A DNA stretch of 46,139 nucleotides from Tortispora ganteri (lineage: Eukaryota), in the NCBI GenBank assembly GCA_003707115.1, contig PPNB01000017.1, positions 124,001-170,139 of the forward strand. Reading direction: 5' to 3'. The notes under the pieces were generated by a model. The model saw nothing but the letters and a program-made list of their open reading frames with translations. It did no database searches and was not told where the DNA came from. Position numbers and translations under genes: made by a program. Positions 15,221-43,039 of this stretch are shown piece by piece. Positions within the stretch are counted from its first letter, which is position 1; each line of letters opens with the position of its first letter.

Positions 15221-15413
15221 CTAACTACGATACTATCGGTGATCTATCATAAATCTGAAAGAAATCTCCTCATCATTTTTTCTTTTAGTTTTGAATGAGT
15301 TATATGAAGATGGTTGAGTGCTGGGGTAGAGACGATATACTGTGTGCAAGCACATATTAGCATTTTAGTGCGATAGATAGATTGTGATATGCTTTTGCGC
15401 ATTCAATCGATAA

Positions 15414-15774
15414 TTATTTAGTTTTCTTTTCTAATTCCGCAACATGAGCCTCTATTCTTCGTACACTTTCGGATAGCACGACAATGTCTTGCAGTAATAG
15501 TTCGTTAGCTTCTTTGTACCTGTCCAAGACGTAATAGTACGCACCAGCACTAGCTAAACTTGTACCAACAAAGAATCCAAAAAGACTATAAGATAAATAG
15601 CGTTAGCGATTGTTTTGCCGCGCAGTAAATTGCAAGAAATAATACTTACCCTCCTCGGAATCCTCCAACTGGACGCCTTCTGGGGGTCGCTACCACAGCG
15701 TCGGTAGAAGCGTATCTAACGGTTTGCAAAGACAATGTCTTACTGGGATAATGACGAATTACGCGTGATAACAT
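15414..15774 (-). CDS. Small (98 aa) spliced, probably mitochondrial single-TM protein; exons 15774-15650 and 15585-15414
   Basis: MLSRVIRHYPSKTLSLQTVRYAST..RRRPVGGFRGG/LFGFFVGTSLASAGAYYYVLDRYKEANELLLQDI..; intron GTAAGT..GCTAAC..TAG joins in frame; absent from the ORF track. Confidence 0.8.
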
Positions 15775-16125
15775 GTTAATAGTTGCAACAATGTCAGTCA
15801 ATGTAGAAGTAATATGGGGTATTTACTTGGTGGAGTGGGTATTAATGGGAGCGGAACGATGCATATGCTTTTCTATTGGCTGGTTTAAAGCTGGCCTAGG
15901 GTTAACTATGAAGCGATCCATTGACGCGAATTTGAGCTCCTTAGATTGCTATATAACGCGTAGTTCAGATATGGAATAACTGAATACAGAGATCAGATAC
16001 TATACTAGGTAGGCAACAATACAGGGACTGTGGTGGAGCTGACAATGATTCCATCGGAGTCTCCATTGTGTGCATAAAAATTGTCCTTCGACAGTTGCTA
16101 CGACATTTGGTTTTCGATATAAACA

Positions 16126-16737
16126 ATGTCAATCTGGAGGAGATTGTACAATTGGCTAGTGTCTTTACTGTGGTCTTCAGAGGTAAGAAATCAATATCAA
16201 TACATTTAATATTTGTAGCATGTACTGACTAATAATTAGACGAATGTTGTTGTGATCGGCCTTCAAAACGCAGGAAAATCAACACTACTTGCCTCTCTTC
16301 AAGGGAGTGATTTCTCTCCAGACACAATTCCAACGGTAGGCTTTGCAGTGCAAACTATTGTGAAAAATAAGGTCACTATTAAATGCTGGGATCTTGGAGG
16401 TCAACCTCGATTTAGATCGCTGTGGGAACGTTACTGCAGGGGTGCTGATGCGATTGTCTTTGTCGTTGACAGCGCTGACTCTGACCTGCTGCACACAGTC
16501 AAATCAGAACTTCACGCTCTCTGTTCACAAGAGTCGTTAGAACATATTCCTCTTCTAGTACTTGCCAATAAACAAGACCTACAACCACACGCTACTACCG
16601 TTGACGAAATGATCGAAAAACTAGACCTGCTGTCGATTCGCGAAAGAGACATTGTATGTTATGCAGTTTCAGCTAAATCCATGCAAAATCTAGACAGTGT
16701 TATTGAATGGCTAGTCGCGAGAGCTCATCACAGTTAG
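16126..16737 (+). CDS. ARL8: Arf-like small GTPase Arl8; exons 16126-16182 and 16240-16737
   Basis: Amphipathic N-terminus MSIWRRLYNWLVSLLW, IGLQNAGKS, DTIPTVGF, WDLGGQPRFRSLWERYCRG, NKQD; intron GTAAGA..CTGAC/CTAAT..TAG. Confidence 0.88.
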
Positions 16738-17038
16738 TGCCATATGTGATGCAAAGATATCATGCTTATATATCACAATATCACATCCAAGCAAACTTAT
16801 GTCACTATTGTTGCTTCGATTGCAACCTAATGTTGTACATTCCTCTTACAATTTTTCACAGGCTCATCTATAGCTAGTTTACAAAGGTTCAATTTTTTTA
16901 CTGCCCTCATCCACTACAGCCCATAACAGGAATTTTTTTTTCTCTACGTCCTTCTTCTTATGTCATTTGATTCGACACATTGAGGACGTATTAAAATCCA
17001 AGTGTGATGCGTGTGTGAATGGTTTAGGATTTTTGATA

Positions 17039-17117
17039 TCACAAATTAGTGTCACAAATCAGTGTCACAAACTTAGACACACACTGGATTTCTCATATTG
17101 TTGTTCATCTATAAATA
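17039..17117 (+). promoter_or_regulatory. Three tandem 13-bp-period TCACAAA motifs (MSE/Ndt80-Sum1-like) followed by a TATA box
   Basis: tcacaaat-tagtg-tcacaaat-cagtg-tcacaaac at 17039-17072; TATAAATA at 17110-17117. Confidence 0.45.
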
Positions 17118-19348
17118 CTGCTTGGTTTTCTTCTTACACCTCACTGGAGGCTTACATTCTCCATGCAAAGTTTGCAAGATGCTAGAAGTATAAGCTTTGT
17201 TACAACAGGCAGACATCATGGCTAATCACAACCAGTGTCGTGTTATACAACTTATATTTTGTTGATTGCAAAGCAATCTATAGGCATAAAGTGCTCTCCT
17301 TGTATCTATCAATCGTACTGTGCTTAAGGTTAGCCTCACTAACAGTACACGCGGTATGAAAATGCATGCCGAGCGTCGTACAGCAGTTATACGACGCTAG
17401 CATACCTATATGTTTTTATAAAACTACAAGGTCACTGCTCTGGCTTTATCACGGTAGCTGGTGGATTCCATAAAGAATATCATCATATTACTAGAAGCTA
17501 TAATCAATGAAACTTCAGTGATTACTCACGTCTAAATTTAGGCGCCTGTTTGATACAGAATCAAACAGTGATAGATATGAGCATTTTTACTTCCTGAGTG
17601 TTGCTCAATGACGACTAATAATTCTACATGAAAAACTAATAATGAAGAGCTATTATCACTTGGTTCTGATTTATGATATACGATACACTTACCTATAACG
17701 GTGCATTAAAAGAATTATGGCTCGGCCGAGGAACAGCATTTGGGATACTCACATCGTTTTTTTTTGGGCTCTTCCTTTTTTTTTACGAATAAAATATGCG
17801 TTAAACCATAAAGTATTACAGTTGAGAATAGTTTGTATTTTGCTGATTCGTGATGCGATTCGATATGGAACAATGTTATTCTGCAGTGAAATAGAAACAA
17901 CCTACGAGTTTCATTCAAAAACTGAATGATAAAAGCTACAGAAAGCAATAGAAAATTACTAAGAGGTGCGAATATGCATGGATTAAAGACTAAACGGACT
18001 AGTTTATCAGTACTTGATCCCGTTCAAGCCTAGTTTCTCATATTCCAGCAATCCGTTACTTAAAATATTGAACGCCAAAGAGAAGGAGTCAGTTATCAGT
18101 TATACATGCTATTTAGGAAGAGAAGTATGCTTCACATAATTGACTATATCACTTAGAGCTATCAGAGTTACAGTACAAAGATTACTATATAATAATACTA
18201 TATGTAATTAATAAGGAGCTAAGTTCGTGGATCCGAGGATCACAGAATTTGGCTTTCAAGATAGCTTAGTAGCCATCAACACACTTGGTCCGCGGGTAAA
18301 AATCTAGTTACCCGGCACAACCTATATAACACTTTAATGATCGCCTCTTTTCTGCTCGGCTATGCCCCCACTGTCTGTAAAAGGTGGCAGTTCGGTAGAA
18401 ATTTGTCGCAGATGAGACTTTGAGACAAGGACTGTCTTGCTTCATCTGCATCACTAAATAGATTTCTAAAAATTTTAGATCGAATTATACGTAATCCCGA
18501 CGTATATGTGGTCTTGCACATGTTCACGGTTTATCATAACCCCTGAAAAAGTCTTAAACAATGTTTTTGAGGGGTTAAGAAATGACCCTGAACCTATTGA
18601 TTTTTGAAGCCGATGAGCTTTAATAATGCAGCACCTTAATGCTTGCTCTTTACTTTGAATTTGCTTAGCGTGATTTTGTGACGTAAGCAAACTGATAGCC
18701 GTATAATCGATTATCGGATAGTTCTAATGAACCTTGATTGATTGATTTCTTTTAGCATCGAAATCTGATTTGAATTGAAAGAATCAGATTGTATTTGCGT
18801 TTTCTTCGGTGGTCCTTTAGGGATTAAGAAAATTTTAATATATGTTGACATGAGCAGAACCAAAGAAGGTTATTCGATTCCTAATGCATCTTGAGTAATC
18901 CTCTTTTTTTTTCTTTATTGCCGATGTGGTTGTGCTACACTGCATCTGTTTTTCCTTTGTGGGCTTTTACAGATTAGGAATTTTTGCTTGGTTGCTTTTA
19001 TTAGCATCTGAATGGAGATTTTGGTCTTCTTTAGTGCGTACTACTCAACATCCGGTGTTTTTTCTTCCATTTAGTGGTTTTTCACCTGCCTTTTTTCTTT
19101 TTCAGTTTTTTTTTTTTTTGGTTGAATATGCGACGTAATGTTGCTTGTTTTTGCCAAGAATGATACTTTAGATCTTAAGATGTGTAGCATGTATTAGTAG
19201 TATTTACTCCTTATTAAATTGTCGTCCATGATTCCTTCTGTGGTGGTAAAATTTAAAGTTTGTATAGCTATCATAGTGTTCCGTACACGGTTTTCAAATA
19301 CCAACAAGACTTTTTCTTGTACCTTCCAATACCAAGATTATATTAATT

Positions 19349-35142: not shown

Positions 35143-38019
35143 ATGAAGATTTTGAAGCCATCGTGGTTATCGCACCGCGATGAGAATAAATTCTTTGATA
35201 TTTACTCAATAGATATCTCACCGGATGGCAAACGGCTTGCTTCAGGTGGACTGGATGGCAAAGTGTGCCTCTGGAGCACTGATCACGTTCTCGAACTACA
35301 TAACCCGTCCAAGACGCGTCTCCTGTCCAGCATGAGTACACACACTGGTGCCGTTACTAATGTGCGGTTCGCACCGCACGGCAGATATTTGGCTTCCGGT
35401 TCAGACGATAGAGTGGTGCTAATATGGGAACACGACTTAGATGCCGCACCTATGGCCGAATTCGGTGCAACTGAAGCTGAATCCGAACGCTGGATTGTCC
35501 GAAAACGCTGCGTTGGCCACGAAAATGACGTACAAGATCTAGCATGGGCTCCTGATTCCTCTATACTTGTGTCTGTGGGACTAGACTCGGCTATTATTGT
35601 TTGGTCTGGATCTACTTTCGAAAAGCTAAAGCGTATAGACGCGCATCAATCTCTAGTTAAGGGCATCACCTTCGATCCAGCCGGTAAGTTTTTCGCAACT
35701 GCCTCAGACGATCGAACTGTAAAAATATTCCGTTATCATCGATCTTCTCCTACTGAGTTCTCTTTTTCTTTGGAACAGACTATCACTAAACCTTTTGAGA
35801 ACTCTCCTTTAACTACCTATTTCAGACGTCTCTCTTGGTCTCCAGAAGGCAACCACATTGCTGCTGCGAACGCTATAAATGGACCAGTACCTACCGTGGC
35901 CATAATATCCCGTGGCTCTTGGTCTTGTGATATTAGCCTTATTGGCCATGAAGCACCAATTGAAGTCGTAACATTCTCTCCTCGCATATACTCCTCGCTT
36001 TCAGATAAACGTATTCTCGCAACTTACATTGCTGCTGCGGGACAAGACAAATCCGTGTCGGTATGGAACACTACAAATCCGCGCCCCTTGTTTGTTGCTC
36101 AAAATTCTGCAAATAAAACCTTTACTGATTTGCGATGGAGCCCGGATGGTCTCAACCTTTATGCGGCTTCAATGGACGGTTCTATTGTCGTGTTCTGCTT
36201 CCAAGAATCTGAACTAGGACCTGTAGTCCCTATTTCTGAAAACGAGAAGCAGCTTGCGAAATTTGGCGGCGGTGGAGATATGACCCATTTCCCAGAATCA
36301 GTTAAGCAGCTTGAACTAGAAAGAATTGCTGCTGAAAAGGAATCAATCCAGAATGAATCTCGCATGAATGACCTTATGGGTGATTCTGAGAATAAACCAA
36401 TGACTGTTGCTAAACCTGTATTAGCTGAGCCTGTATCGACATCAAAACCAACTCCTTCTCCAGATGTCGCAGAGGCTCGCTCAGATGCCGCTTCAGAATT
36501 ATCTGCTGCAGCTGCTTCTACCGCTGCAACTGCCCCTCATTCTGTGAATCGCAACTCATATAGTTCTTCTGCGACTAACACACCTACAAAACAGAAAGTC
36601 TCAATTACAAAAGATGGACGTAAACGCGTTGCCCCTCAGCTTGTATCAACTAGCAGGAGCCAACAAGACAACGCACTTTCCTCGGCCCCGATTATGACAG
36701 CTCAGCACACTAACCAGCAGTTGGTTACTTCAGATAATAGGACGGCAATAGATTACTCGAAACCTTCTAATGTTCTCCCCTCTGGTGGAATATCTGCGTT
36801 GGTAGTAGGAAACAAGCGCCGATTGAAAGTGACTGAAGATAATGAAAAAGAGAATGGTAATGATACAAAGAAAATTGCGACCGACTCTGTTGAAAAGCTA
36901 TTTCCAGATTATATTCGACCTGCAGTTGTATCGCCTGCACTAGTCATGTCTCACGTGAGATTGGCTACTCCAAAAGTACAAACTGTGATCAATTTCCGTT
37001 CCAACAAATTCCCGTTTGTTCTAGAAATCCGCAATGGGTCAGGATCAGAAAGGGCTCCTACTCGACTCATTCTTTCTGAAAAGGATACTATCATATGGCA
37101 AGATTTCCTGCCGAGAACTGTCATATTAGCTACAGCAAGCTTGAATTTCTGGGCTGCATTGACCGAAGATGGATCTGTTCACATATATTCACCTGCGGGA
37201 AGACGAATATTACCACCCATTGTACTCGAATCGGTGCCCTGTTTTGCGGAATGCAATGACCGATTTTTAATGGTTCTAACTTCGACTGGACAGGTATACG
37301 TCTGGGATATATTAGCGCGCAAAGCGCTGCATGCGCCAGTTTCAGTAGCTGCCATCCTTGACAGTGCCGCATTGTCAGATCATCAGCTTCACAAAGCGCC
37401 TTCTATTACACAATGTGGTATTTCAGAGGCAGGGTCACCACTTATTTCTTTGACAACAGGAGACTCATATGCGTATTCATCGGAAATGTTATCATGGCAT
37501 AGAATCTCTGAATCGTGGTGGGCTGTTGGATCCCAGTACTGGGATTCCAGCGTCGTTCGTAAACTTGGTGGAGTTATTGGGGCAACTGAAAGACGTACCG
37601 ATAGTCAGTTGCTGCTGCAAGGACGAGGAAGACTTCTGCAACGGCTTGTTAAGGCTGCCCAAATGCGTGAAGGATGCGAAAATATCGGTAGCGTGGTCTC
37701 AACGGGCCACTTGGAGAACCGTTTGGGCGTAGCTATTTTGTTGAATCTGTCTGAAGAGTTAAAAAACCATATGCTCATGTATGCACGGCTATTGGCACAG
37801 GAAGGGTTGAAGGATAGACTCGAAGAATTGTTCTCTGAGTTGCTCGGTCCTGGAGATGCTGATCCAAACTGGGACCCTTTATTGTGCGGATATAAGAAGC
37901 AAGATCTACTCCGTGAGATACTTCAAGCTATTGGACGAATTCGAGAAGTCCAGAAAATCACAGTTCCCTATGCTGAGGCATTAGGAATTGTTAAGGATGT
38001 TATGGATGTAGACTCATAG
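35143..38019 (+). CDS. HIR1: HIRA histone chaperone/transcription regulator
   Basis: MKILKPSWLSH, WD40s with FRRLSWSP, B-domain QKVSITKDGRKRVAP, Hira C-domain (GRRILPPIVL, HLENRL). Confidence 0.93.
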   Translation: MKILKPSWLSHRDENKFFDIYSIDISPDGKRLASGGLDGKVCLWSTDHVLELHNPSKTRLLSSMSTHTGAVTNVRFAPHGRYLASGSDDRVVLIWEHDLDAAPMAEFGATEAESERWIVRKRCVGHENDVQDLAWAPDSSILVSVGLDSAIIVWSGSTFEKLKRIDAHQSLVKGITFDPAGKFFATASDDRTVKIFRYHRSSPTEFSFSLEQTITKPFENSPLTTYFRRLSWSPEGNHIAAANAINGPVPTVAIISRGSWSCDISLIGHEAPIEVVTFSPRIYSSLSDKRILATYIAAAGQDKSVSVWNTTNPRPLFVAQNSANKTFTDLRWSPDGLNLYAASMDGSIVVFCFQESELGPVVPISENEKQLAKFGGGGDMTHFPESVKQLELERIAAEKESIQNESRMNDLMGDSENKPMTVAKPVLAEPVSTSKPTPSPDVAEARSDAASELSAAAASTAATAPHSVNRNSYSSSATNTPTKQKVSITKDGRKRVAPQLVSTSRSQQDNALSSAPIMTAQHTNQQLVTSDNRTAIDYSKPSNVLPSGGISALVVGNKRRLKVTEDNEKENGNDTKKIATDSVEKLFPDYIRPAVVSPALVMSHVRLATPKVQTVINFRSNKFPFVLEIRNGSGSERAPTRLILSEKDTIIWQDFLPRTVILATASLNFWAALTEDGSVHIYSPAGRRILPPIVLESVPCFAECNDRFLMVLTSTGQVYVWDILARKALHAPVSVAAILDSAALSDHQLHKAPSITQCGISEAGSPLISLTTGDSYAYSSEMLSWHRISESWWAVGSQYWDSSVVRKLGGVIGATERRTDSQLLLQGRGRLLQRLVKAAQMREGCENIGSVVSTGHLENRLGVAILLNLSEELKNHMLMYARLLAQEGLKDRLEELFSELLGPGDADPNWDPLLCGYKKQDLLREILQAIGRIREVQKITVPYAEALGIVKDVMDVDS

Positions 38020-38069
38020 AAATGAACTGTATGGCTACGCGCTCATTTCTTTATTTGCTGATAAGGAAA

Positions 38070-38451
38070 TGTATTAAGATTTGACCCTAAGTCGGTTTTT
38101 TATGTATAGGCGGGTGATTCATTGACTCTCTAGAAGTAGGGAGGACCACAGGTTCTTCATACAACTTGAAGTAAAGATAAAATATACGATGGTAGGATTG
38201 TTACCTACTAATCCTTCTTCTAGTTCTAACTGTAATACCAAGAGAATGGTTACATAGAACACATATAACTAGAAAGATAATACTGATGTACGATCAGTAT
38301 ATGCCCGATTCGGAGTGAGACAAGAGGTGTATGCATAGCATCCTAATGAATGCCCGAGCAGGGCCTCTAATAAGGGAACGTGCTAGTTTCACGTAACCTT
38401 CAGTTAGGAAACCAGCCAAATATGTTCTCAGTTGCTAAGATATTATCAATA
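38070..38451 (-). repeat. 3' LTR (382 bp)
   Basis: Homologous to 40460-40940 (7 mismatches in the 119-nt core 38153-38271); minus strand reads TATTGA..ATACA. Confidence 0.85.
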
Positions 38452-38458
38452 CTCCCCT
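38452..38458 (-). other. Polypurine tract
   Basis: Minus strand AGGGGAG directly abuts the 3' LTR, as in copia-type elements. Confidence 0.65.
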
Positions 38459-38819
38459 GGATCTACAATACTTCGTCAAGTGGTGTAGATCTTTGATGAA
38501 ATATCTTTTATAGTCCGTACAACTGTTATGGGGTGTTGTATAACTTGATGATTAATCAATGAGGAAACTGTCCTTTGTTCCTGCACCGTACAAGATTTAA
38601 TAATCTTGTCACCATCTAAATGGCACAGGTCAACATAAGTTTCGAGTTTTGCGCCATGCCCATACACATTACTACTGAAGTTCTTACTTTCAGTAATCAT
38701 ATAGTACATTCTGCGTCGGGGGTTGATACGGATGGGTACTGCATGGACGTTGTGATGTTCTTACAACACTTCTCAGAACTATCAACTCCACTATTGAGTG
38801 TCCATGTATGCCTTCTGTC
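38459..38819 (-). pseudogene. Degenerate pol remnant (aspartic-protease-like start)
   Basis: In frame after the gag TAG: DRRHTWTLNSGVDSS, similar to copia W(I/L)LDSGA(S/T); stop at 38697-38699. Confidence 0.5.
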
Positions 38820-39974
38820 CTATTGTGATTTAGCATGGAGGACAGGTTGATTCTTGTCTGCTTTAGCAGGCTTCTTCGGACGCTTCTTGAATTTTTTCTG
38901 CTCAACAACAGCAGGGTTTGCAACAATTCGTTTGGCCATAACCGCCGAAGCTGGTACAGTCTGAAGACCAATTTCTTCATATATTATTTGAATCTTATTG
39001 TCTCGCATGGCTTGAAGTTCACGAAAAGTTTTAGCACTAATACCCGTTCCAATGGTGTGCTTCTCTAGCATTTCAGTGACCCATGTTTTAAATGTTTGGT
39101 CAACTGAGGGATAGTATTGCCAGTTAAGCACCGTGATCCATCTATAAAAGTCATTCCATTCAATCATTTCTAGTAATTTCTCCATACGTTGATGTTCTGG
39201 AAGAATTTCAGAATACTGTTTTCCAATGAACGTAGACCAATCGTTTCCCATATACGAGTAAAATATACGTGTCACGTCTTGCAGAGTAACTCGTTTAAGA
39301 ATTTCCCGTGATCTAGCGTCAAAAGTTGGAAAATCTAGGATGTCCAGGAAATTTCTATAATTTCTCTGTAGAGATTCGGAAGTGATTGAAGAAGCCAGGA
39401 TAGTCATAACTTTCGACGTACACATCCATTCCACCACATAGGATTGAATGTCAGCGAATACTAAGGCCATAGTGGGGCGATTAACAACACTCTTAACAAA
39501 TCTTGGGTGAATATTTCTAGCGAGTAGGGCATTCTCCAATCTGTACAGTAAGTCTGACTCAGTCAAACGAACGTATTCGGCAATCTCTTTTGTACAGAGT
39601 CCAGGAGCAAGCTCTTCTTTCCAGCTCAGATCCATCATCGAGGCGGAAATATCAATTTCGGAAGTAACCTCGCGATACAAGTCTCTCAAAGATATATTCT
39701 TCAGATTATTCATCAAGACTTTCATATTCTTAGTGTACTTCTCGTTTAGACCTGCACTTAAACCTTGGAGTTCAAGTCTATCCATAATCCTCTTTTTCCA
39801 TTCAATATATTCCAGTGAGTTAAAACCAACGCTTAGCTTGATAGCAATTGGTTCTTCAGAGGCATCTGTAATCTGTTTACGCCTCTGTTCCCATGCTTGG
39901 AAAGTAGTTTCAGGGATACGCTTATAGAGGTAAGATTCTTGATTTTCAATATTTTCCTCTCTCGATTCACCCAT
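38820..39974 (-). CDS. gag: Gag-like protein, 384 aa
   Basis: Lies between LTRs downstream of the PBS; N-terminal EYIEWKKRIMDRLELQGL resembles copia NY..WK..M...L...GL; basic C-terminus KKFKKRPKK; no CCHC knuckle. Confidence 0.75.
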   Translation of the reverse strand: MGESREENIENQESYLYKRIPETTFQAWEQRRKQITDASEEPIAIKLSVGFNSLEYIEWKKRIMDRLELQGLSAGLNEKYTKNMKVLMNNLKNISLRDLYREVTSEIDISASMMDLSWKEELAPGLCTKEIAEYVRLTESDLLYRLENALLARNIHPRFVKSVVNRPTMALVFADIQSYVVEWMCTSKVMTILASSITSESLQRNYRNFLDILDFPTFDARSREILKRVTLQDVTRIFYSYMGNDWSTFIGKQYSEILPEHQRMEKLLEMIEWNDFYRWITVLNWQYYPSVDQTFKTWVTEMLEKHTIGTGISAKTFRELQAMRDNKIQIIYEEIGLQTVPASAVMAKRIVANPAVVEQKKFKKRPKKPAKADKNQPVLHAKSQ

Positions 39975-40097
39975 GTTGATAGTTGAACCAGTATATGAGA
40001 AAATTATATTATCTGACTTGGGGAGAAGAATGGAATTCTATATCACACATTACATCCCTTTTCAAATCCTCATTTTCTGTGATAAGCGAAAGATTTC

Positions 40098-40169
40098 AGG
40101 TTCGACCCCTGGCGGCTAGGTTGCTAGAGGTTCAACCCCTGGCGGTTAGCTCGCTAGAAGTTCAACCCT
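40098..40169. repeat. 30-bp tandem repeat x2.4 in the retroelement leader
   Basis: aggttcgacccctggcggctaggttgctag / aggttcaacccctggcggttagctcgctag / aagttcaaccct. Confidence 0.9.
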
Positions 40170-40427
40170 GCAACGAATGGTAGCTTTCTAATAAGAACTT
40201 AGATCACAATAAAGGTTTTGTTGGACGCCAACGTAATAATTCTTTGTCCCTATTGGGTCACCTACTATTCCAGTGAAACTAGAGTTAATCAATAGACTTT
40301 ACTTAGGCAAAATTATTCAACGTAGGTAGGGAACTCGTTAAGCCATGATTCCCCACCCCAAGTCACTCATCAGGCATACAACGCCACTTCACAGTTGTAC
40401 TGACTGTGAAGACATCAGTGACTGATG

Positions 40428-40459
40428 TAGCTGTGGAAGAGCAATTGAGACTCTTAATC
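40428..40459 (-). other. Primer-binding site complementary to the 5' half of tRNA-Lys(CUU)
   Basis: Plus strand TAGCTGTGGAAGAGCAATTGAGACTCTTAATC abuts the LTR; GACTCTTAATC is the tRNA-Lys(CUU) anticodon stem-loop sequence. Confidence 0.75.
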
Positions 40460-40940
40460 TGTTATTAATGTTTGACTCTAAGTTGTTATTTAGCCGGGTA
40501 AGTCATTGACTCAGTAGAAGTAGAGGATCGTACGTTCTTCATACAACCTAAAGTAAAGATAAATTATATGATGGTAGGATTGTTACCCACTAATCCTTCT
40601 TCTAGTTCTACCTGTAATACCAAGAGAATGTTTACATAGAACACATATAACTATGAAAGATAACACCGATGTCCGATCCGGTGTGAGACAAGAGGAAGTC
40701 ATAAGTATGCGTAGCATCCTTATGGAGTCCGAGCAGGGCCTCTAATAAAGGAACCTGGTAGTTTCAAGTAACCTAAGATTCACCTCACGCATGCTATACT
40801 AGAATGATCTAACACTCGTAAGCTTACTGCTTGCGATTGTCTAAAGTTCAAGGTAGGTTAGGTGCGTCCTTTTATAGGATTGGAATAAGGATTAGGGAAC
40901 CTAGCCAGATAGGTTCTCAGTTGCTAAGATAATATCAACC
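40460..40940 (-). repeat. 5' LTR (481 bp) with TATA box
   Basis: Homologous to 38070-38451; minus strand reads GGTTGA..TAACA; TATAAAA at 40876-40870. Confidence 0.85.
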
Positions 40941-40990
40941 AAAGGCCACCTCCCACCTGTCAACCCACCTTCTTCATATTCAGCATTATT

Positions 40991-43039
40991 ATGAGTGGCA
41001 GTTCTACTGTCCGTAACAAGGCGCCGGCGCCTGTTCAGATTTCTTCGGAACAGATTTTGGCAGAAGCACAGGCTTTAAGGCAGGATAGAAAGAAGAACGT
41101 GAAACTTGATGTCGTTGATCTAGAGGAACTCAGCGAGTTCCAGCGACATAAAAGGGAAGAGTACGAAGGTGCACTCCAAAGGAAGTCACATGATATCAAG
41201 CAATGGATCAGATACGCAGAATGGGAAGCTGAACAGAAGGAATTTTCAAGAGCTAGATCTATATTTGAAAGAGCACTATCTTTACATCCATATGACGTCC
41301 CGTTGCGTCTTCGCTACATTAGAAGCGAACTGAAGCATGAGAACATCAACCATGCTCGCAATCTCCTAGAACAGTCTGTTGTACTGTTGCCTACAATTGA
41401 GAAGATCTGGTATGAGTACGTACAAGTTGAAGAAAAATTGGGAAATATACCAAAATGTCGTGAATTGTTTAGCAGATGGGCTAAATTTGCAACCAATCCT
41501 AAACCTATGCTATCGTGGATCGACATGGAGTGCCGCTACAAAGAGTGGTCAAACGCGCACGTAATATTTGAGAGCCTATGTCAGGCCTTTCCTCAATCAG
41601 AAAACTGGATAAAATGGGCTGCGTTTGAGAATGCGCATGGGTCTTCAAAATCAACTCGTCTAGTTTACACTAAAGCTATAGACACCACCACTCGGATGGC
41701 AAACTTAGATGAGATCTTATTTATCGAATTTGCTCGTTGGGAAACTTCTGTCAATGAATTAGAGAGAGCTCGCGCCATATACAAATACGGCCTTCATGTA
41801 CTACCTCCAAATCAAACTTACCGGCTGTATACTGCATATGCTACATTTGAAAAATTGCATGGTTCACCTGAAGACCTTGTAAATGTCATCACTGTTGAGC
41901 GGAAATCTGTGTATGAAAAAATACTAAGTCAAGATCCAAAAAATTATAGTACTTGGATAGCATATTTACAAATGGCTATAGGGGGTTTCCCTACTGAACA
42001 AGTACGTGCACTTTTCGATCGCGCTGTCGCTCAAATTCCTGAACAGAAAGACAAAAATACATGGAAAGAATTCGTGTATTTGTTTATTTATTATGCTTCA
42101 TGGGAGGAAGTGGCTAACAATGACATAGAAAAAGCGGACCAAATATACTCTAATTGTTTGAACCTGATACCTCATAAATCGTTCACGGTCGCTAAGGTTT
42201 GGCTCTTGTATGCGAATTTAATGATTAGACGAAAATTGTTACCTGAGGCTCGAAAACTGTTAGGCAAATCGATTGGAATGTGTCCTAAACCTCGTCTATT
42301 CAAGGGCTACATTGAAGTTGAATTGAACTTACGTGAATTTCAGAGGTGCCGGATCATCTATGAGAAATATTGCCAGACTTTCTCTACTACCCCGGAGCCG
42401 TTTATCGCGTTTGCTAATATGGAACAAAATTTAGGCGAAGATGAACGCGCTAGGGCTATCTTTGAAATAGCCTTGGATATACCGGATATGTGTAAAAGAG
42501 GAGATCTGTGGGCTGGGTACATACAATTTGAGATTGAAGAAGGAGAGTATGGGCGAGTGCGAGACCTGTTCGGAAGATTTATCAACGATATTCCAACTTA
42601 TGAGCCATGGGTTGAGCTAGTGCAATTTGAGCTTGTTGCACCTGATCCCGAAGGAGAAAATGATAAGCAAGAAAATATTGATCATGAAGAGGATGAGACT
42701 GTGGAGTTCTCAGAACGTCCCGCTACCGAGTTAGGTGTTATCAGGGCTCGCAAAGTTTTCGAAAAAGCCATTATTCATTTTTCGAAGAGCTCTCAAGTTA
42801 ATGATCGCGTTGCTATTCTAGCAGCCTGGAAAGAATTTGAACAAATTTATGGAACCGAGGATACATTACAAAAAGCTATTAGTTTGCAGCCTCAAATGAT
42901 TGTCAAACAGAAGAAAATAGGCGAAAACGTTTTTGAAGAATATGAAGCTTATGAATTTCCTGAAGATAAACTTGCTCAGGAAGCCAATGTTAACTTCCTG
43001 AAAGCTGCACATTCCTGGAAAGAGAAGATTCAAAGTTAA
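40991..43039 (+). CDS. CLF1: Crooked-neck/HAT-repeat pre-mRNA splicing factor
   Basis: VRNKAPAPVQISSEQIL, RARSIFERAL, INHARNL, LGKSIGMCPKPRLFKGYIE, C-terminal AHSWK. Confidence 0.95.
   Translation: MSGSSTVRNKAPAPVQISSEQILAEAQALRQDRKKNVKLDVVDLEELSEFQRHKREEYEGALQRKSHDIKQWIRYAEWEAEQKEFSRARSIFERALSLHPYDVPLRLRYIRSELKHENINHARNLLEQSVVLLPTIEKIWYEYVQVEEKLGNIPKCRELFSRWAKFATNPKPMLSWIDMECRYKEWSNAHVIFESLCQAFPQSENWIKWAAFENAHGSSKSTRLVYTKAIDTTTRMANLDEILFIEFARWETSVNELERARAIYKYGLHVLPPNQTYRLYTAYATFEKLHGSPEDLVNVITVERKSVYEKILSQDPKNYSTWIAYLQMAIGGFPTEQVRALFDRAVAQIPEQKDKNTWKEFVYLFIYYASWEEVANNDIEKADQIYSNCLNLIPHKSFTVAKVWLLYANLMIRRKLLPEARKLLGKSIGMCPKPRLFKGYIEVELNLREFQRCRIIYEKYCQTFSTTPEPFIAFANMEQNLGEDERARAIFEIALDIPDMCKRGDLWAGYIQFEIEEGEYGRVRDLFGRFINDIPTYEPWVELVQFELVAPDPEGENDKQENIDHEEDETVEFSERPATELGVIRARKVFEKAIIHFSKSSQVNDRVAILAAWKEFEQIYGTEDTLQKAISLQPQMIVKQKKIGENVFEEYEAYEFPEDKLAQEANVNFLKAAHSWKEKIQS

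Follow-up and report, generated by a model that had tools for sequence, protein, structure and literature searches.

How can a reading frame of more than a thousand nucleotides stay open between two long terminal repeats (LTRs) that have themselves visibly decayed? This question is raised by a small LTR element of Tortispora ganteri on contig PPNB01000017.1 (assembly GCA_003707115.1), within a stretch of 46,139 nt (positions 124,001 to 170,139 of the forward strand). This stretch is hereafter called the window, and its own numbering is used throughout. The element spans 2872 bp between a HIR1-like and a CLF1-like gene, is read from the minus strand, and holds one open reading frame (ORF) of at least 50 aa that is coding-like (Table 1). 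The initial annotation, made from the letters alone, saw in it an intact gag frame and a broken pol region between decayed LTRs. This observation is mostly right, with gag and pol as interpretations laid upon it. The element is best described as a gag-only LTR retrotransposon, similar in layout to the TR-GAG elements of plants, in a Tortispora-type yeast, with an orphan ORF that selection of some form has kept open; that the host has domesticated this ORF is a live minority reading.

Table 1. Features of the element and its two neighbouring genes (window positions; LTRs named in the sense of the element)
Feature	Positions	Strand	Remarks
HIR1-like gene	35143-38019		Pfam Hira, HIRA_B, CAF1B/HIR1 propeller
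3' LTR	38070-38451	-	382 nt; starts TA (TG expected), ends CA; without the ~114-nt block; direct-repeat families D1-D4, D6, D8, D9
Polypurine-tract-like run	38452-38460	-	adjoins 3' LTR; + strand CTCCCCTGG; read by eye, no chance test
Non-coding remnant, ORF stop to polypurine tract	38461-38819	-	stops in all three frames
Protease-like motif WTLNSGV	38784-38804	-	in ORF frame, 6 codons past TAG
Intact ORF, candidate Gag	38820-39974	-	384 aa, 1155 nt, ATG to TAG
Long leader	39975-40440	-	485 nt from LTR end to ATG, including the primer-binding-like site
tRNA 3'-half look-alike	40084-40168	+	anticodon-stem 3' strand, variable loop, T arm, acceptor 3' strand
Leader arm of 5'-3' complementarity	40367-40410	-	partner 38508-38552, just upstream of the polypurine tract
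Candidate primer-binding site	40441-40459	-	abuts 5' LTR; + strand GCAATTGAGACTCTTAATC
5' LTR	40460-40941	-	482 nt; TG start, CA end; extra ~114-nt block about 40776-40895
CLF1-like gene	40991-43039		best database match 88% identical, Tortispora caseinolytica

An open frame between diverged repeats

The longest stop-free run in the 2008-nt interior of the element is 405 codons, as compared with a median of 90 and a maximum of 200 codons in 2000 shuffles, and the 1155-bp frame is indeed free of stops and frameshifts, as had been noted, its 384 codons lying beyond anything seen in the shuffled sequences. Measured against host codon usage, the ORF read in frame reaches 0.222 bits per codon, which compares with 0.08-0.31 for the 20 host genes of the window, while its other five frames are all negative on this measure. 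A chance ORF is ruled out by the shuffle lengths together with the host-like codon usage.

In a global alignment the two LTRs share 316 matches and differ by 41 mismatches (11.5%; 21 transitions and 20 transversions) over 357 aligned positions. This alignment also requires nine indel events, in line with the many indels reported at first, and the largest of these is the block of ~114 nt that is present in the right copy alone. The best block of the pair is 131 nt long at 92% identity and bears out the earlier figure of 7/119 nt. Both LTRs had also been said to have lost their TG start; this does not hold, as the right repeat ends at 40941 and not at 40940, and the 5' LTR reads TG..CA and the 3' LTR TA..CA. 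The canonical TG/CA is thus present at three of the four terminal dinucleotides.

How improbable is the open frame under such decay? If the interior is assumed to decay neutrally at the rate of the LTRs, i.e. at half of 11.5-12.5% per lineage, the 1155-nt frame would acquire no new stop and keep its ATG with a probability of 0.028-0.036. The probability of escaping a frameshift is 8.8e-5 when it is taken from the indel density of the LTRs (nine events, with 7/9 taken as frameshifting), and ~0.07 in a hand estimate from the indel density against a second genomic copy of the ORF, which is described below. The joint neutral chance of an open frame comes to ~3e-6 to 2e-3, and luck is therefore unlikely. 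Given how rarely such a frame would survive neutrally, the core of the original proposal, namely that the frame is under selection either as a host gene or as part of a mobile family, appears reasonable.

The main weakness of this inference is that the divergence of the LTRs may not date the ORF. Against the second copy, the interior shows two indel events in ~960 nt at 12.3% substitutions, whereas the LTR pair shows nine in 357 aligned nt. With interior indels far rarer at a similar substitution divergence, the age of the interior is poorly timed by its LTR pair. Given the low neutral chance of an open frame, the ORF is either younger than its LTRs make it appear or under selection.

Downstream of the ORF, 359 nt separate its stop codon from the LTR, with stops in every frame. 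A broken pol region of ~360 bp had been announced here; length and decay are as described, but Pfam detects no pol domain, either in the three frames that follow the ORF or in six frames over 38020-40990, and the likeness to pol comes down to one motif that was picked post hoc. This motif, WTLNSGV, resembles the protease signature hydrophobic-x-hydrophobic-D-S/T-G-A with the Asp replaced by Asn. A relaxed protease pattern, chosen after the motif had been seen, occurs in any frame in 70 of 20000 shuffles, and in frame within the first 30 codons in five of 20000. The second genomic copy also aligns over this remnant. The RNA following the TAG forms no stable read-through structure (z 0.18 as compared with shuffles).

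A run resembling a polypurine tract (PPT) and a candidate primer-binding site (PBS) adjoin the inner ends of the 3' and 5' LTR, respectively. The latter site may be read as the D-stem and anticodon arm of a tRNA, with a loop C-U-CUU-A-A, and ends 2 nt past this loop. On this reading of the letters, reverse transcription would be primed by half of a tRNA-Lys, which I take to be tRNA-Lys(CUU), and a Ty1/copia affinity of the element would be suggested. ARAGORN finds no tRNA gene in the window, and Rfam, run on the whole window, reports nothing at gathering score.

Further copies in the same organism

Contigs assembled from two public runs of the same organism were compared with positions 37000-42000; the two runs gave identical figures and are counted once. 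The number of contigs that align is 47, with 21 at 99% identity or more, six at 95-99%, four at 90-95% and 16 below 90%. The 21 most similar contigs represent the locus itself, split at repeated words, and the remaining 26 of the 47 are diverged; the summed depth of these contigs does not equal a copy number.

The other LTR copies stop at the same boundaries as the LTRs of the element (near 40460 and 40941, with loose ends at 40467 and 40946), after which unrelated flanks follow. The extra block of ~114 nt in the 5' LTR also recurs in other genomic copies, with the same left boundary and different flanks. With respect to the ORF, a contig of 4754 nt matches 38535-39439, which covers the 3' half of the ORF and the sequence downstream of it, with 111 differences and one gap in 906 nt. 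The same contig then skips 26 nt, matches a further 57 nt, and continues for ~3.8 kb that are unlike the window. As diverged matches to both LTR and ORF are dispersed in this way, both belong to a dispersed, diverged, low-copy family. Inside the window itself no further copy of the element is present, since blastn returns its own LTR pair and a tandem repeat only.

Three positions, 39731, 40949 and 41276, have a different base in the public-run contigs from that in the window, and the contig base at 39731 would change Lys82 of the ORF into Glu. Elsewhere these contigs equal the locus exactly over the listed pieces. The window and the public runs may derive from different isolates or from different versions of a consensus.

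Weighing the explanations

The explanation that I tentatively prefer is that the element is one copy of a low-copy, non-autonomous, pol-less LTR retrotransposon family, of which the ORF was kept intact by the transposing lineage, and that its stay at this site is shorter than the LTR divergence suggests. In the order of the minus strand, such an element would consist of a 5' LTR, a PBS of the half-tRNA type, the 485-nt leader, the 384-aa ORF, the TAG followed by ~360 nt of decayed sequence, the PPT and the 3' LTR, with the decayed sequence opening with what may be a dead protease-like motif in frame. It could make its own capsid-type protein, and would borrow protease, reverse transcriptase and integrase from an autonomous relative for its movement, while the integrity of its ORF would be owed to selection in the transposing lineage. 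One conceivable route is that cDNA or ectopic recombination replaces the interior of an older insertion. Such a replacement would leave old outer and new inner parts of the LTRs, which would then be mismatched throughout, with an eroded target-site duplication. Of the two forms of selection considered at the outset, the mobile gag-only family is the one that gained ground, through the diverged copies of LTR and ORF, the PBS- and PPT-like sites and the TR-GAG layout.

Several results weigh against this preferred explanation. No clean target-site duplication is found (on the plus strand, GGAAA precedes the element and AAGGC follows it); the letters AAGG are common to both flanks, but lie 3 nt off on the left side, and the missing duplication could be due to erosion or could be a sign of recombination. 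Over 38670-39337 one other contig, 88% identical, is present besides the locus's own, so that a recent conversion lacks a visible close donor. Five judged LTR sites (38130, 38206, 40728, 40749 and 40767) carry an odd base that is private to one LTR of the element, which fits a long decay in place and speaks against a young copy; these sites were drawn from the best-supported 40 of 244 differences, a choice that is biased towards private sites. No autonomous partner was seen, the ~3.8-kb continuation of the second copy's contig not having been read. The leader is long, with seven upstream ATGs that each open a frame of 13 codons at most, and Rfam gives no tRNA match on the PBS-like site (40432-40459).

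The protein is no more helpful to this explanation. AlphaFold, run on the single sequence with no alignment, returns a predicted local distance difference test score of 35.9 for the whole ORF and of 38.9 for residues 95-345, which is too low to read a fold. Pfam reports no gag family at E values up to 10, the sole row being TFIIS_M at E 0.16; phmmer finds no match at E 0.001 among 1.84 billion protein representatives; word-based searches yield no relative among 2189 candidates of near length and 5077 longer ones; and the best match in the PDB, at E 0.35, is irrelevant.

Domestication is a possible, though rather doubtful, alternative. According to this explanation, the insertion is old, and the host keeps the ORF open for a useful protein, for example one that derives from a capsid and inhibits a related active element, in the manner of Ty1 p22 or DRT2 of Saccharomyces. 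It would account for LTRs that are 11.5% apart with nine indels and no clean target-site duplication, and for a frame that is open though the neutral chance is ~0.03 with respect to stops and 9e-5 to ~0.07 with respect to frameshifts. The host-like codon usage of the ORF is in its favour as well, as are the judged LTR differences, which are private to the element as in decay in place, and the nearest copy of the 3' half of the ORF, which at only 88% identity leaves no recent donor visible. A precedent in yeast is DRT2, which descends from a relic of Ty1' GAG and acts as a restriction factor against Ty1' (PMC10951436). However, positive support for domestication did not emerge, as the ORF is not single-copy in the contigs of the organism and has no homolog in the protein library. 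This library includes the annotated sister species, of which the CLF1 protein was matched, and any domestication would therefore have to be very young. Moreover, the element has kept both LTRs and its PBS- and PPT-like sites, and an mRNA started in the LTR would bear the 485-nt leader with its seven upstream ATGs. Unlikely, to my mind, is the fuller version in which the insertion is as old as the LTRs suggest and the host uses an orphan capsid-type gene, for example as a species-specific inhibitor, of gag origin, that acts on the related active element, while the 5' LTR may also be the promoter of the essential splicing gene CLF1.

Is the ORF a gag gene at all? I infer this from its position, and not from homology or fold. 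Circumstantially, it is the sole long ORF after the LTR and the PBS-like site, its size is Gag-like, it is all-helical in two low-confidence AlphaFold models, and the protein ends in a basic tail (KKFKKRPKKPAK). It contains two Cys and four His, and a CCHC knuckle is absent. Yeast Gag proteins evolve fast, and Ty1 Gag likewise does without a CCHC knuckle. In a protein-language-model Atlas, the named clusters nearest to the ORF are mostly gag families (zf-CCHC 0.88, Retrotran_gag_2 0.84, TYA 0.84), with scores that all remain below 0.9 and amount to a lead only. A metagenome scan with the ORF confirmed none of 136 pattern matches, and the missing self match of the ORF in a collection of 15 billion proteins is uninformative, as none of four proteins from the window is present there.

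That the ORF is not Gag, having been captured by, or newly arisen in, a genuine pol-less LTR retrotransposon, would agree with the orphan status of its protein, for which no search returned a gag family, a zinc knuckle or a capsid fold. This is nevertheless improbable, as the frame is the first and only long one after LTR and PBS and of Gag-like size, its product is predicted to be helical with a basic tail, and an in-frame protease-like motif follows it. The pace of Gag evolution in yeast and the knuckle-less Gag of Ty1 make an orphan Gag less surprising, the Atlas neighbours lean, weakly, to gag families, and the library search offers no host homolog that was available for capture. That the ORF owes nothing to selection and was spared by luck during neutral decay in place is hardly credible, considering the joint probability of ~3e-6 to 2e-3 and the stops that fill all other frames of the interior.

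Comparison with known elements

The nearest parallel to the preferred explanation, a pol-less family that retains its own gag-type ORF, is found in plants. The TR-GAG elements are shorter than 4 kb and have LTRs, a PBS, a PPT, a 5-bp duplication and a single GAG ORF, but no pol (PMC4350172, 2015). TR-GAG1 of coffee has LTRs of 485 bp and an ORF of 433 aa, with few similarities to aspartic proteases at the end of the ORF, and its autonomous partner is stated not to have been found (PMC4350172). In sugar beet, a survey gives 28 of 115 non-autonomous families as keeping only GAG/PROT (PMC13570524).

With these plant elements, the yeast element shares a length below 4 kb, LTRs of ~400-500 bp, a PBS and a PPT (here candidates), one ORF of ~400 aa in the Gag position, and the lack of pol. 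It further shares a faint likeness to a protease (here just past the ORF stop), the lack of an obvious autonomous partner, and several copies per genome. In contrast, gag domains (UBN2/PF14223, zinc finger) are recognisable in the plant ORFs, and none is found in the yeast ORF. Plant copies are also young and flanked by a 5-bp duplication, whereas in the present budding-yeast host the LTRs have diverged by 11.5% and no clean duplication flanks them. With neither a gag domain nor a duplication, the element works like TR-GAG by layout, and its membership by homology is unproven. In the literature searched no gag-only LTR elements of the TR-GAG kind are described in fungi, and the TR-GAG accounts found all concern plants.

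The candidate PBS invites a comparison with copia and Ty5. The tRNA would here presumably be Lys(CUU), and not the initiator Met as in those elements. Priming by half a tRNA is known from both copia and Ty5, and the candidate PBS would follow their pattern, pairing with an anticodon stem-loop and ending shortly beyond the loop (PMC5371799). However, no pol is left here, and neither Pfam nor phmmer found similarity to any Ty1/copia protein. A third parallel is Tca2 of Candida albicans, in which gag, UGA and pol share one frame and the spacer is purine-rich (PMC4139406). The present element likewise has, after its ORF stop, an in-frame purine-rich stretch and a protease-like motif. The two layouts differ in that the RNA after the stop is here no more stable than shuffles, as the z of 0.18 mentioned above indicates.

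In Saccharomyces, p22 of Ty1 is reportedly a gag-derived restriction factor. Like DRT2 and p22, the locus presents a gag-type ORF (here a candidate) that survives in a yeast retrotransposon relic. Unlike it, these two are reported to correspond to the C-terminal, capsid part of a Gag that is known and to be inhibitory, whereas the present element keeps a whole ORF together with LTRs and PBS- and PPT-like sites, has an ORF that is multicopy, and is known from sequence alone.

If confirmed, the preferred explanation would provide a clear TR-GAG-like case from a small-genome yeast that branches early among the budding yeasts, and would indicate that the layout of a parasite on a parasite is not confined to plants. 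The element could then serve as a tractable system to study what a self-encoded Gag does for a pol-less element, and how restriction factors of gag origin, DRT2 and p22 among them, come into being. If domestication were true instead, this would be a second, independent domestication of gag in yeasts, far from Saccharomyces. A decaying relic of which the interior was refreshed by recombination would be ordinary.

The leader and the ends of the RNA

The leader contains, antisense to the ORF and ~125-210 nt upstream of its ATG, a look-alike of a tRNA 3' half, of which the RNA of the element bears the complement. Its T-arm/acceptor part is tandemly repeated 2.4 times with a unit of 30 nt (Tandem Repeats Finder; repeat family D5). 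At 40084-40120 the tRNA model RF00005 matches in a 5'-truncated fashion (model positions 36-71 of 71, 13.1 bits, E 0.94), which is under the gathering score; Rfam returns no match to the look-alike when larger stretches are searched, and ARAGORN none. Another genomic copy has, joined to 40169, letters that finish with ...GGCGGCAAAGCCA; this is a CCA-bearing acceptor end and indicates a mature tRNA as the source. Read on the element strand, the junction at 40169 would resemble a classical junction of LTR end and PBS, and hints at a second PBS. The interior may thus be a chimera, in which the present LTRs are combined with the leader and ORF of another element.

An extended LTR of 773 nt (40169-40941) was considered, since another copy joins the complement of a tRNA 3' end directly to 40169. 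It was rejected as the main reading, since the left repeat and another genomic copy end at the boundary equivalent to 40460.

The leader and the sequence just upstream of the PPT are partly complementary. They form an inverted repeat (I1) of 35 nt at 80%, which blastn reports at 77.8% over 45 nt with E 1.2e-5, and the duplex energy is -66.7 kcal/mol as compared with -53.9 +/- 5.0 in shuffles, two of 100 shuffles reaching it. The ends of Ty1 RNA are brought together by pairing, and the pairing seen here might do the same for the RNA of this element, which I regard as a modest lead. The 26-nt skip of the second genomic copy (38508-38535) falls exactly over the 3' arm of this pairing.

The locus's own contig over 40032-40360 has a depth of 35.3, against ~78 for its neighbours, and a second contig, with a depth of 77.1, covers 40200-40245 and 40316 onward with a skip of 70 nt. 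The leader may be polymorphic, or this second version may be present in another copy.

Neighbourhood of the element

The genes on either side had been named HIR1 and CLF1, and both names are borne out, HIR1 by Pfam domains and CLF1 by a database match. While the best match of the CLF1 protein, from Tortispora caseinolytica, is 88% identical, the second-best reaches 44%; judging from this protein, the host is a yeast closely related to T. caseinolytica, an early-branching budding yeast. Only 50 nt (38020-38069) separate the element from the stop codon of HIR1. On the other side, 49 nt (40942-40990) lie between the element and the start codon of CLF1, and the 5' LTR points away from this gene. 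With the element this close to its start, the promoter of CLF1 therefore has to be either in this 49-nt gap or within the 5' LTR.

Elsewhere in the window, 4.1 kb (15221-19348) are without an ORF of at least 80 aa. No retroelement domains, no repeats and no autonomous partner are found in this stretch. It does contain a coding block for an Arf-family GTPase on the plus strand, at ~16228-16720 (Pfam Arf, E 6e-44), and because this block is without an upstream frame that starts with ATG, the Arf-family gene is probably interrupted by an intron.

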